IMG/VR virus record: IMGVR_UViG_2877953467_000001
Origin: a virus
Taxonomy: Duplodnaviria > Heunggongvirae > Uroviricota > Caudoviricetes
Reading direction: 5' to 3' (one strand)
Length of the DNA stretch: 3,411 bases
Shown here: positions 1,506 through 3,411 of the stretch, in pieces
Layout of the letters: the number at the start of each line of letters is the position of its first letter
Numbering within the stretch: the first letter of the stretch is position 1
The notes under the pieces: generated by a model
Seen by the model: the letters and a program-made list of their open reading frames with translations, nothing else
Told to the model about the DNA's origin: nothing
The model's database searches: none
Program-made: the position numbers and the translations under genes

Positions 1506-1862
1506 ATGAGTATTGGATCAGAAATGAATAACGATGTTGGAGAAAAAGTATCTGATCTCACAAAAAGTAAAAAATGTGACATCAAACTTGCAGCCGCACC
1601 GTCGGATTTGCTCTCGAAAGAGGGATTTGCTCTTTACATCGGTAAGACGCCTCGTGCTGTTGCTGAAATGGCGAAAGCAGGCAAGTTACCAGCCTTTTAT
1701 ATGACGGACCCATTAAAGCCGGGCGGTCATGCTGAGTTATGGATTAATCGCCGTGAGTGGGACAGGTACGCAGCCCAACTAGTTGATGAAGCTCCGACAG
1801 AATGGCATGACTGGAAAAATCGCATTAGTTACAGCAAATCAAGACATGGCCGTGCGGCTTAA
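1506..1862 (+). CDS. cox: Cox-like protein (excisionase / early-operon regulator of P2 family), 118 aa with extended N-terminus
   Basis: ATG at 1506 preceded by GAGGA (1493-1497); stop TAA at 1860-1862. The core FALYIGKTPRAVAEMAKAGKLPAFYMTDPLKPGGHAELWINRREW resembles the P2 Cox core as I recall it (...LIGKSTGAVRRMIDKGKLPVIDMTDP...). First gene transcribed away from C, as expected for cox/apl. Start could instead be ATG 1524. The TTG at 1476 used by the ORF track is unlikely. Confidence 0.75.
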   Translation: MSIGSEMNNDVGEKVSDLTKSKKCDIKLAAAPSDLLSKEGFALYIGKTPRAVAEMAKAGKLPAFYMTDPLKPGGHAELWINRREWDRYAAQLVDEAPTEWHDWKNRISYSKSRHGRAA

Positions 1863-1872
1863 GGTGGAAAGG

Positions 1873-2043
1873 ATGAACGAGCCTCGTTGTATTGCTCAGC
1901 TATTGCGTAATGAAAGCCCCAGGGCGATTGACTTCACCATCACCCACGGTAAGGGGCGTAAGGGAATCATTATCCGCACCAAAAAACAGAGTCCGTTAAA
2001 GAAGGCTCTGACCTTTCTGAAAAGCCGGAGGGTATGGAAATGA
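1873..2043 (+). CDS. Small basic hypothetical protein, 56 aa, in the position of P2 orf78
   Basis: ATG at 1873 follows an AAGGTGG/GGAAAGG Shine-Dalgarno (1861-1871) 10 nt after the cox stop. Product MNEPRCIAQLLRNESPRAIDFTITHGKGRKGIIIRTKKQSPLKKALTFLKSRRVWK is lysine/arginine-rich. Stop TGA 2041-2043 overlaps the next start (ATGA). The 86-aa extension in the ORF track overlaps cox and is not favoured. No function recognisable from sequence. Confidence 0.55.
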   Translation: MNEPRCIAQLLRNESPRAIDFTITHGKGRKGIIIRTKKQSPLKKALTFLKSRRVWK

Positions 2044-2540
2044 CAGTGATGACGCTCAATCTCGTTGAAAAACAGCCAGCAGCTATGCGCCGGATAATTG
2101 GTAAGCATCTTGCCGTTCCTCGCTGGCAGGATACATGTGATTATTATAATCAGATGATGGAGCGCGAACGGTTAACGGTTTGCTTCCATGCTCAGTTAAA
2201 ACAGCGTCACGCAACGATGCGTTTTGAAGAAATGAACGACGTCGAACGTGAACGACTGGTATGTGCAATTGATGAATTGCGTGGTGCATTCTCAAAACGC
2301 CGTCAGGTTGGCGCAAGTGAGTATGCATATATTAGTTTTTTAACAGTCAGTCAGCGTCGTACTTTATTTATGCATGCCGGATTGACTGAAAAAGAATTCA
2401 ACCAGCCATACTGGCGAATTAATGAAGAGTCATGTTACTGGCGTGATGCTTTATTCCGTGCATTACGTGAATTATTCAGTCTATTTGAGTATGCACCGAC
2501 AATTCTGACGTCGGTAAAACCAGAGCAATATCTGCATTAA
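2040..2540 (+). CDS. B: P2 gpB-like replication protein (lagging-strand synthesis / helicase-loading factor), 166 aa
   Basis: ATG at 2040 with GGAGG at 2027-2031 (8-nt spacer); stop TAA 2538-2540. Product MTVMTLNLVEKQPAAMRRIIGKHLAVPRWQDTCDYYNQMMERERL...EYAPTILTSVKPEQYLH has the length and sequence character of P2 gpB as I recall it, and the correct position after cox and the small ORF. ATG 2034 is in frame but too close to the Shine-Dalgarno. Confidence 0.8.
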   Translation: MTVMTLNLVEKQPAAMRRIIGKHLAVPRWQDTCDYYNQMMERERLTVCFHAQLKQRHATMRFEEMNDVERERLVCAIDELRGAFSKRRQVGASEYAYISFLTVSQRRTLFMHAGLTEKEFNQPYWRINEESCYWRDALFRALRELFSLFEYAPTILTSVKPEQYLH

Positions 2541-2561
2541 GTAATTAACCAGAGTTTTTAA

Positions 2562-2589
2562 CGCACTTAATTGTGCGGGGCTTCTTTTT
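2562..2589 (+). terminator. Weak stem-loop followed by a T-run in the B-orf80 intergenic gap (possible attenuator or partial terminator)
   Basis: cgcac (2562-2566) / gtgcg (2573-2577) form a 5-bp stem with a 6-nt loop, followed by gggcttcTTTTTg (T-run 2585-2589). Stem is short and the T-run is 7 nt away, so this is marginal. It is the only sizeable intergenic gap (63 bp) inside the early operon. Confidence 0.15.
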
Positions 2590-2603
2590 GCCTGGAGAAA
2601 GTC

Positions 2604-2828
2604 ATGCATACAGTTTCTGAAAATCAGTGCGGTAAATACGCATTACTGCTGCAACAGGCCAGAACCGAAGCACAGGCCGACGCAGCGACGCGCTTTTCTT
2701 CTCATCTTGACGCCATGATTCGCCACATCACAAAGGCGGAGTTATCCCGCGTGGAGATAGTCGAGCTGCTCAGTCAGGAGTCGGAAAAATTTCACAATAT
2801 CGGATTGTCTCGCGGGGAGGTGCTTTGA
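2604..2828 (+). CDS. Hypothetical early protein, 74 aa, in the position of P2 orf80
   Basis: ATG at 2604 preceded by GGAGA (2593-2597, 6-nt spacer); stop TGA 2826-2828 overlaps the next ATG (TGATG). Product [74 protein letters not shown]. No recognisable catalytic motif. The TTG-initiated extension from 2571 is not favoured. Confidence 0.6.
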
Positions 2829-3130
2829 TGTCCTGTTCTCGTTCAGTTGTATTACTGAATAACGCCTTAAAAATCGCCGTTATGAAAAATGGCGATTTAT
2901 CTCTTATTCAACTTGGTCTTGATAAAGAAAAACGCGAAATAACTGAGTCTGTTATCGCGATTTATCAGAACGAATTAAATCTCCTGTCTGATGTGGTCAA
3001 TTTACTTGTTAAACGCGCTGTATTTCACAAGCAAATCTCCTCCGTGGATGAACTGACGAAATTAACGACAGAAATCGCCAGCTATTGCGCTGATGAATTT
3101 AAAAAACTGAACGACAAAAGGAACTGGTAA
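2828..3130 (+). CDS. Hypothetical early protein, 100 aa, in the position of P2 orf81
   Basis: ATG at 2828 with GGAGG at 2816-2820 (7-nt spacer), overlapping the upstream stop. Stop TAA 3128-3130 overlaps the next ATG (TAATG). Product [100 protein letters not shown] looks helical and leucine-rich. No known motif recognised. Confidence 0.65.
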   Translation: MSCSRSVVLLNNALKIAVMKNGDLSLIQLGLDKEKREITESVIAIYQNELNLLSDVVNLLVKRAVFHKQISSVDELTKLTTEIASYCADEFKKLNDKRNW

Positions 3131-3342
3131 TGCCGGACAACATAGATTTTATTCAGGAACAACAGGCTGAATTACTGGAGCGCCAGATTAACGCGGCAAG
3201 GGTAAAACATTGCGGTGCTTCTGCGCTGGTTTGCGAAGAGTGTGACGCGCCAATACCTGCTGCCCGTCGTGCGGCTTATCCGTCAGCCACGCGTTGTGTT
3301 TCCTGTCAGGCAGTCTTTGAAGCAAAAAACANNNNNNNNNNN
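3130..3342 (+). CDS. TraR/DksA-family C4 zinc-finger protein (P2 orf82-like); 3' end falls in or just beyond the N-run
   Basis: ATG at 3130 with AAAGGAA at 3117-3123. The first 67 residues are MPDNIDFIQEQQAELLERQINAARVKHCGASALVCEECDAPIPAARRAAYPSATRCVSCQAVFEAKN. They contain CEEC, 17 residues, then CVSC, the CxxC-x17-CxxC pattern of DksA/TraR zinc fingers. The ORF runs into the N-run at 3332-3342, so the true stop and C-terminus cannot be read. The in-frame continuation to 3411 in the ORF track is not trustworthy. Confidence 0.7.
3332..3342. other. Run of 11 ambiguous bases (assembly gap or masked sequence)
   Basis: Literal n characters at 3332-3342. True length of the missing sequence is unknown, so reading frame across it is undefined. 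Confidence 0.95.
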
Positions 3343-3411
3343 ACAATTAGATATCAAAAAATGTCACCAATAACTGACATTGCGGTGTTTCTCCAGATGT
3401 GGCCCATCTGA

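Follow-up and report, generated by a model that had tools for sequence, protein, structure and literature searches.

Three small genes of a P2-type prophage, orf78, orf80 and orf81: fixed parts of the early operon under purifying selection, with a probable link between Orf78 and phage 186 Fil

Introduction

P2 Orf82 and lambda Orf73, both of the TraR/DksA type, are small early phage proteins that bind RNA polymerase and inhibit rRNA promoters (PMC9239242). P2 Orf82 binds the polymerase at the DksA site and inhibits rrnB P1 with an IC50 of 250 nM, and its overexpression has been reported to stop growth (PMC9239242). The product of P2 gene B has been counted among the helicase loaders (PMC12661323); B is noted as an essential protein in the P2 record, a note that orf78 does not carry, and the same record gives gpA as the initiator. 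For phage 186, the record states that overexpression of fil blocks cell division and that antitermination acts on the terminators of the region in lytic growth, and it describes Orf79 and Orf83 as "unknown function; not essential". Variation among P2-like phages is concentrated in two loci, which have been described as carriers of anti-phage genes (PMC9122126).

The genes orf78, orf80 and orf81 are already known in P2 and have been annotated without an assigned function since the 1990s. A literature search, with the key older P2 papers outside its scope, found no functional studies of orf78, orf80, orf81, DUF2732 or DUF5405. Here, the three genes were examined in a stretch of 3,411 nucleotides from a virus of the Caudoviricetes (IMG/VR record IMGVR_UViG_2877953467_000001; the whole stretch is called the window below), for which an earlier note, made from the letters alone, had put forward three small early ORFs as candidate host-takeover or anti-defence genes.

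Results

The ORF list and the family searches place the left end of a P2-type prophage in the window (Table 1); the DNA of the window is 98% identical to that of Peduovirus records, OU784746 and phage pro147 among them. A run of Ns occupies 3332-3343; the final 68 bases beyond it are non-contiguous with the phage sequence and represent the ogr-side attachment junction and E. coli chromosome beside pflB, and the window is therefore a composite of both prophage ends. Gene order and overlaps are those of P2, and so is the terminator that separates B from orf80. The immunity module is unlike that of P2, where the C ORF has 99 aa and Cox 91 aa, compared with 103 aa and 118 aa in the window (as annotated for pro147); orf78, orf80 and orf81 themselves, however, show no such difference. 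The three ORFs of 56, 74 and 100 aa exist where the earlier note had placed them, and each has a ribosome-binding site (Shine-Dalgarno sequence); AAGGTGGAAAGG, GGAGAAAGTC and GGGGAGGTG precede the orf78 ATG, orf80 and orf81, respectively. The range 1873-3130 also spans gene B, the earliest in-frame ATG of which is at 2034, and a hairpin (2562-2577), neither of which had been named in that note.

Table 1. Features of the window, with positions counted from its first letter
Feature	Position	Strand	Remarks
integrase	1-996	minus	
C-type repressor	1090-1401	minus	
Cox-family protein	1506-1862		
orf78	1873..2043	+	56 aa, pI 11.7; stop overlaps B start (ATGA)
gene B (helicase loader)	2040..2540	+	P2 annotation; phrog_235 at 2.5e-105
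terminator-like hairpin	2562..2590	+	between B and orf80
orf80	2604..2828	+	74 aa, DUF2732
orf81	2828..3130	+	100 aa, DUF5405, orf83 paralogue
orf82 (TraR/DksA-type zinc finger)	3130..3331	+	PF01258, TIGR02419; 5' part only, ends at N-run

The naming of the ORFs as orf78-, orf80- and orf81-like was borne out by identities of 100%, 98.6% and 97% to the respective proteins of P2 (AF063097). Of 5426 complete E. coli genomes, 1671, or about a third, have the 1258-bp block that holds them. When phage records were searched with tblastn, orf78 and orf81 matched only 75, essentially the genus Peduovirus as judged from record names and the lineages that were checked; all copies of orf78 in these records were at least 95% identical and all copies of orf81 at least 80%, and orf80 also matched a few remoter relatives among the phages of Klebsiella, Yersinia and Enterobacter. 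Across 80 IMG/VR loci, the full-length copies of all three genes were intact, segregating sites were concentrated at third codon positions, and pairwise dN/dS was 0.049 for orf78, 0.085 for orf80 and 0.091 for orf81, with 0.027 for the essential gene B. Because the copies are intact and dN/dS is low, the ORFs are genuine, selected genes, and the selection on them is strong and purifying.

To place the three genes among related phages, a census was made of 80 Enterobacterales loci anchored on the initiator A, each with 6 kb upstream and one genome per species in the collection; ORFs were classed by jackhmmer with P2 and 186 proteins as seeds, and statistics were computed on the 74 of them that had 5 kb or more of upstream sequence. 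The backbone that emerged consists of cox or apl-cII, then orf78 or fil, then B or a shorter B-like gene, the hairpin, a DUF2732 gene, in some loci a DUF5405 gene, a TraR-like gene, a variable stretch, in some loci again a DUF5405 gene, and A. DUF2732 genes were present in 50 of the 74 loci and TraR-like genes in 56, with no correlation between the two (p = 0.57). The TraR-like gene and A lie about 0 to 2160 nt apart, with exonuclease, PAPS-reductase-like, orf91-like and unassigned genes in between, and this stretch is the operon's slot for variable cargo. The three ORFs lie in the Pe early operon, as had been stated, where they are fixed, translationally coupled parts rather than variable cargo. 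Related prophages of Enterobacter, Citrobacter and Lelliottia (loci L086-L092 for Enterobacter and Citrobacter) are without orf81 and orf82 and have kept orf78-B-orf80-orf83-A. Of the small early genes here, orf82 is the only one with a demonstrated host-directed activity, and proteins of its TraR/DksA type have no relation in sequence or fold to Orf78, Orf80 or Orf81.

Orf78 is a member of phrog_273 (7e-41) and matched no family in Pfam, NCBIfam or PADLOC. In alignments the family measures about 56-60 aa and has a core of P4, I7, A8, L11 and F21-x-I-T-H-G-K-G-R-K-G-I-I-I-R-T, all of which the window protein contains. An exhaustive search of 1.84 billion representative proteins yielded only 26 relatives, many of them truncated or extended variants, and a profile search yielded 329 proteins, of which every one with a named organism was from Enterobacterales and every one with a named product was "hypothetical". 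The AF2 model, which is of moderate confidence only (pLDDT 77, pTM 0.38), predicts an alpha-beta-beta-alpha arrangement of helix, beta-hairpin and helix, with the invariant basic loop HGKGRKG at the tip of the predicted hairpin; a fold search with this model gave no meaningful PDB neighbour. Orf78 is thus probably small and very basic, with an alpha-beta-beta-alpha fold whose hairpin, FTITHGKGRKGIIIRT, is conserved.

A comparison with phage 186 yielded the one concrete functional lead among the three ORFs. Fil of 186 occupies the same slot as Orf78, directly 5' of a B-like gene that it overlaps, and is similar in size and basic charge; the two genes co-occurred in none of the 74 census loci. 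Profile alignment of the two families with hhalign gave a probability of 91.5% and an E value of 8.7e-7 over only the N-terminal 20 or so residues (22 columns), with a score of 35.9 compared with no more than 20.3 in any of 400 column shuffles and at most 15.5 for control small families. Within this module, ePrcIAqlLr.qsP of Orf78 corresponds to ePSfAsLLvkQSP of Fil. Beyond the module the two proteins were left unaligned by hhalign, and their central hairpins read HGKGRKGIIIRT in Orf78 and HGWIxGxDGxRWHP in 186 Fil. The Pfam Fil model (PF10893) found no match at E <= 1 in the window protein or in 107 members of the Orf78 family, and the two families stayed separate in jackhmmer searches. For Dhr, the other host-directed 186 protein that had been invoked, BLAST showed no similarity to Orf78 and hhalign none to B. 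Judged from these alignments, Orf78 and Fil are probably distant homologues, or at least have an N-terminal module in common. The analogy to 186 fil and dhr therefore fits Orf78 better than the earlier note could know, by exact position as well as by the probable module in common with Fil; it applies to the slot of orf78 and B only, whereas the 186 counterparts of Orf80 and Orf81 are Orf79 and Orf83.

The second feature of orf78 is its association with gene B. In all 20 census loci that carry it, orf78 lies directly 5' of a full-length B of at least 166 aa, and stop and start overlap as ATGA in 17 (as at 2040-2043 in the window) and as GTGA in 3. Across the 74 loci, 20 had both orf78 and a full-length B, none had orf78 alone, 2 had a long B without orf78 and 52 had neither (Fisher 4e-16, uncorrected for shared ancestry); the switch region next to the 20 pairs was of the cox type in 14 and of the cII type in 6. 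Orf78 and the DnaB-helicase loader B may accordingly be read as an obligate two-gene cassette. It is possible, though we doubt it, that Orf78 is simply a subunit or cofactor of B, a basic nucleic-acid-binding partner that helps to deliver DnaB to the displaced strand and has no role towards the host. The strict co-occurrence and the conserved stop/start overlap would suit such a partner, as would the joint movement of the pair through differing immunity modules, the pI of 11.7 and the invariant Gly/Arg/Lys beta-hairpin. However, the N-terminal module is probably common to Fil, for which the recorded phenotype is a block of cell division; moreover, two loci do with a long B in the absence of orf78, and the P2 record gives essentiality for B with no such note for orf78.

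Orf81 was assigned to DUF5405 (PF17399, 119.1 bits against a cutoff of 21.6, E 1e-34), and so was P2 orf83, the product of which is 52% identical to 186 Orf83; Orf81 and 186 Orf83 are thus both DUF5405 proteins. Two DUF5405 genes, orf81 and orf83, flank the TraR-like gene in P2, compared with one in 186, in which an RNase T-type exonuclease and a PAPS-reductase-like protein are also encoded between the TraR-like gene and A. BLAST detected no similarity between Orf81 and Orf83; jackhmmer searches started from either one converged on 42/43 ORFs, and single DUF5405 proteins of Pectobacterium and Brenneria prophages match both and bridge the two. By this sequence evidence orf81 is a diverged paralogue of orf83. 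The AF2 model of Orf81 (pLDDT 85, pTM 0.70), built on a shallow alignment of 23 sequences, predicts four antiparallel strands followed by a helical hairpin. The fold search gave no meaningful PDB neighbour, and Foldseek against BFVD returned only uncharacterised proteins of assorted phages, among them Morganella phage MP1, Salmonella phage TR2 and Lactobacillus phage Bacchae; the presence of the predicted fold in such unlike phages is easier to reconcile with an autonomous accessory protein than with a dedicated partner of A. The structure prediction that had been proposed as a check, when run on Orf78 and Orf81, thus matched no known fold in either model, and in agreement with the earlier note no catalytic or DNA-binding motif was found by Pfam, NCBIfam, PADLOC and PDB sequence searches or, for Orf78 and Orf81, by fold search.

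Several leads on Orf81 were followed and set aside. A likeness of the protein to the N-terminus of oligoribonuclease (E ~0.04) was examined because the neighbouring slot in 186 has the RNase T-type exonuclease; BLAST was negative, the AF2 model has only a four-stranded beta-sheet and two helices, and the likeness was dismissed as coincidence. The best hit of the DUF5405 profile in the PDB, to prion protein at E ~0.01, was not significant. The label "replication initiation protein", carried by phrog_265 and some RefSeq records, was rejected, as Pfam, NCBIfam and PDB searches detected no Rep domain, and NC_070906 labels the gene "minor tail protein"; since the product labels contradict each other and come without detectable homology, they are unreliable. 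Apparent fusions of orf80 with orf81 (P0003, P0009, P0107) and of orf81 with orf82 (P0092) are frameshift products and not Rosetta-stone evidence. One protein combining DUF5405 with DUF7415 (P0256) was uninformative. A hairpin within orf81 (2871-2898) has mismatching, uncompensated variants and is probably fortuitous.

In the census, DUF5405 occurred only alongside DUF2732: 28 loci had both, 22 had DUF2732 alone, none had DUF5405 alone and 24 had neither (p = 5e-7, uncorrected for shared ancestry). hhalign showed no relation between the two families. A bolder pair of readings, which we hold to be rather unlikely, would make more of these associations: Orf78 and Fil could form one diverged family of small basic proteins, coupled without exception to a B-type (DnaB-binding) gene, or, alternatively, DUF2732 and DUF5405 could be an unrecognised two-protein early module with a target in the host or in counter-defence. 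If the Orf78/Fil family were true, P2/186-like phages would tie the arrest of host division, or another take-over step, to hijacking of the replicative helicase in one conserved two-gene cassette.

That one or more of Orf78, Orf80 and Orf81 neutralise bacterial immunity early in infection, as had been suggested, appears improbable. The proposal draws on the fact that they are small proteins without an assigned function in the early (Pe) operon and that Pfam, NCBIfam, PHROG and PDB searches gave no homologue of known function; in addition, orf81 is present in some related prophages and absent from others, and the predicted DUF5405 fold is scattered over unrelated phages, as is often the case for accessory genes. 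PADLOC, which holds models of defence systems only, and NCBIfam gave no match for any of the three. However, the three are near-invariant backbone genes, for which neither 75 phages nor about 1600 E. coli prophages show allelic turnover, and lie outside both variable hotspots of P2-like phages (PMC9122126). Stop/start overlaps chain them to B, orf82 and A, and the variable slot of the operon is elsewhere, between the TraR-like gene and A. The generic marks of anti-defence genes, namely a variable accessory region, allelic turnover or diversifying selection, were found for none of the three. The anti-defence candidacy thus found no positive support, and it is disfavoured by invariance, purifying selection and translational chaining.

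Orf80 belongs to DUF2732 (PF10809, 39.9 bits against a cutoff of 25, E 4e-10) and to phrog_128, and is 31% identical to 186 Orf79, another DUF2732 protein that is likewise encoded by the first gene past a terminator, tR1. Single-sequence and profile searches of the PDB gave nothing significant for Orf78, Orf80 or Orf81. Upstream of orf80, the hairpin CGCAC-TTAATT-GTGCG, with a 5-bp stem and a 6-nt loop, is followed by GGGGCTTCTTTTT, comprising GGG and a T-rich run; it is annotated as a "putative rho-independent terminator" in P2, and tR1 stands at the equivalent place in 186. The hairpin was present in 29 of 31 distinct lineages, and its stem covaries through compensatory changes (for example CGCAC/GTGCG, CACGC/GCGTG, GACGC/GCGTC, TGACG/CGTCA and TGGCG/CGCCG). 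In all but one of the loci measured, the DUF2732 gene starts 17-80 nt past the B-like gene. Since the putative terminator lies 5' of orf80, orf80 and orf81 would be expressed only by read-through; expression immediately after derepression, as the three ORFs had been credited with, carries this caveat for the two genes behind the terminator.

These observations also bear on the idea that Orf80, Orf81 or both regulate phage transcription, with read-through at the B-orf80 terminator or the timing of A expression as examples, an idea that we consider quite improbable. A conserved, covarying hairpin directly 5' of orf80, the antitermination of the region's terminators in lytic growth of 186 and the adjoining gene for the RNA-polymerase binder Orf82 all fit it. 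Nevertheless, orf80 is downstream of the terminator and could only feed back on it, no nucleic-acid- or RNA-polymerase-binding family was detected by Pfam or PDB profile searches, and the 186 orthologues are annotated as not essential. Finally, the view that the three are chance reading frames or decaying remnants, to which the very short ORFs and the lack of a Pfam family for Orf78 might lend themselves, is practically untenable, as it is refuted by the selection analysis (intact full-length copies in 80 loci, dN/dS of 0.05-0.09, third-position excess) and is also opposed by homologues that are conserved, to about 40% identity, between Enterobacterales genera and by a Shine-Dalgarno sequence for each ORF.

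Discussion

Taken together, these data favor one overall reading, to which as a whole we give a probability of roughly one half. As their identities to P2 show, the ORFs correspond to orf78, orf80 and orf81 in a P2-type (Peduovirus) prophage; Orf78 would be a Fil-like protein linked to B, and Orf80 and Orf81 would be accessory proteins rather than interchangeable counter-defence cargo. The early operon to which they belong is conserved and chained translationally as cox-orf78-B and, past the terminator, as orf80-orf81-orf82-orf83-A. Orf78 would be the P2 counterpart of 186 Fil, as suggested by the common slot, the absence of co-occurrence and the N-terminal module of about 20 residues, and it most likely targets a host process when lytic growth sets in; it may act by blocking cell division, as overexpressed Fil does, or by assisting or regulating B. 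Orf80, Orf81 and Orf83 are probably non-essential accessory factors of an early programme that would combine TraR-type reprogramming of host RNA polymerase with rolling-circle replication dependent on A.

With respect to the two roles that had been suggested for these ORFs, a host-directed one is plausible, by analogy through the Fil link, for Orf78 alone among the three, and nothing was found that refutes it. The anti-defence candidacy, by comparison, is disfavoured by an invariant backbone that is under purifying selection, located outside the hotspots (PMC9122126) and chained translationally to B, orf82 and A. If P2/186-like early operons carry counter-defence cargo, the slot between the TraR-like gene and A is the first place to look for it.

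The genes themselves have long been on the P2 map, and what is added here is modest: the orf78-B cassette, the module probably common to Orf78 and Fil, the paralogy of orf81 and orf83, and the dependence of DUF5405 on DUF2732. Because P2-type prophages are present in about a third of E. coli genomes, the three proteins are among the commonest "known unknowns" of this species, and assigning a function to orf78, orf80 and orf81 would make the map of a classic model phage more complete.

Exchange of the switch region upstream of a conserved operon

Exchange affects the switch region independently of the operon that lies downstream. The immunity module of the window is unlike that of P2, and its cox gene was matched at the DNA level in only 26 of 83 related loci; orf78 to orf82 were matched at the same level in 81-82 of the 83. 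Short B-like proteins of 74-146 aa (mostly 91-135 aa) are encoded by most 186-like and Serratia/Rahnella prophages (loci L105-L163); by hhalign (98.5%), their homology is to residues 24-87 of P2 B, the counterpart of the B gene at 2040-2540 of the window. In phage 186 itself, the unrelated dhr sits in the B-like position.

Sequence features of the window
Feature	Position	Detail
Immunity module	1090-1862	C ORF, 103 aa; Cox, 118 aa; as annotated for pro147
Terminator-like hairpin	2562-2590	B-to-DUF2732 intergenic region; compared across L084-L163
Terminator-like hairpin, 11 bp	2871-2898	Within orf81
A6 run	3105-3110	Near the end of orf81
N-run, 12 bases	3332-3343	Followed by 68 bases to 3411

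Hairpins between B and orf80 and within orf81

The hairpin preceding orf80, the DUF2732 gene, has a stem of 5 bp and a loop of 6 nt, with GGG and then a T-rich run after it, and is the counterpart of both the 'putative terminator' of P2 and tR1 of phage 186. Across the corresponding intergenic regions of 80 Enterobacterales prophage loci (L084-L163), this hairpin was kept in 29 of 31 lineages, and the changes in the stem were compensatory. Intrinsic terminators do not usually have a GGG spacer between stem and T-run, as this hairpin does. The terminator-like hairpin inside orf81 is probably fortuitous, because natural variants disrupt its pairs without compensating changes.

Paralogy, fusion and naming of orf81

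The orf81 gene (2828-3130) and P2 orf83 (L002:3770-4045) are diverged paralogues, both of the DUF5405 family; the two flank the TraR-like gene, and are bridged by single-copy DUF5405 proteins from Pectobacterium and Brenneria prophages. A +1 insertion in the A-run of orf81 leads to an orf81-orf82 fusion, represented by a protein cluster (P0092) with 74 member sequences on 10 contigs; this insertion may be genuine variation, or it may come from sequencing error in the homopolymer. RefSeq names for orf81 orthologues conflict ('replication initiation protein' versus 'minor tail protein'; L001:2931-3233 and L164:4451-4750), and two records list 'tail fiber protein' against the match to orf78. These product names are propagated labels, without detectable homology to support them.

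Prophage junction and the stretch upstream of A

The 68 bases after the N-run are not a continuation of orf82: positions 3344-3376 correspond to the arm of the attachment site on the ogr side, and the remainder is E. coli chromosome adjoining pflB. Both ends of an integrated prophage are thus brought together in the window, over a gap of unknown size. When the 68-base tail was used as the query, a partial match was obtained in 5425 of 5426 E. coli genomes, and the complete junction in 394. Among L084-L163, the stretch from the TraR-like gene to the replication initiator gene A varies in length from approximately 0 to 2160 nt and contains RNase T-type exonuclease, PAPS-reductase-like, orf91-like or unknown genes. 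It looks like the slot in which the early operon carries its cargo, and counter-defence genes would therefore be better sought there.
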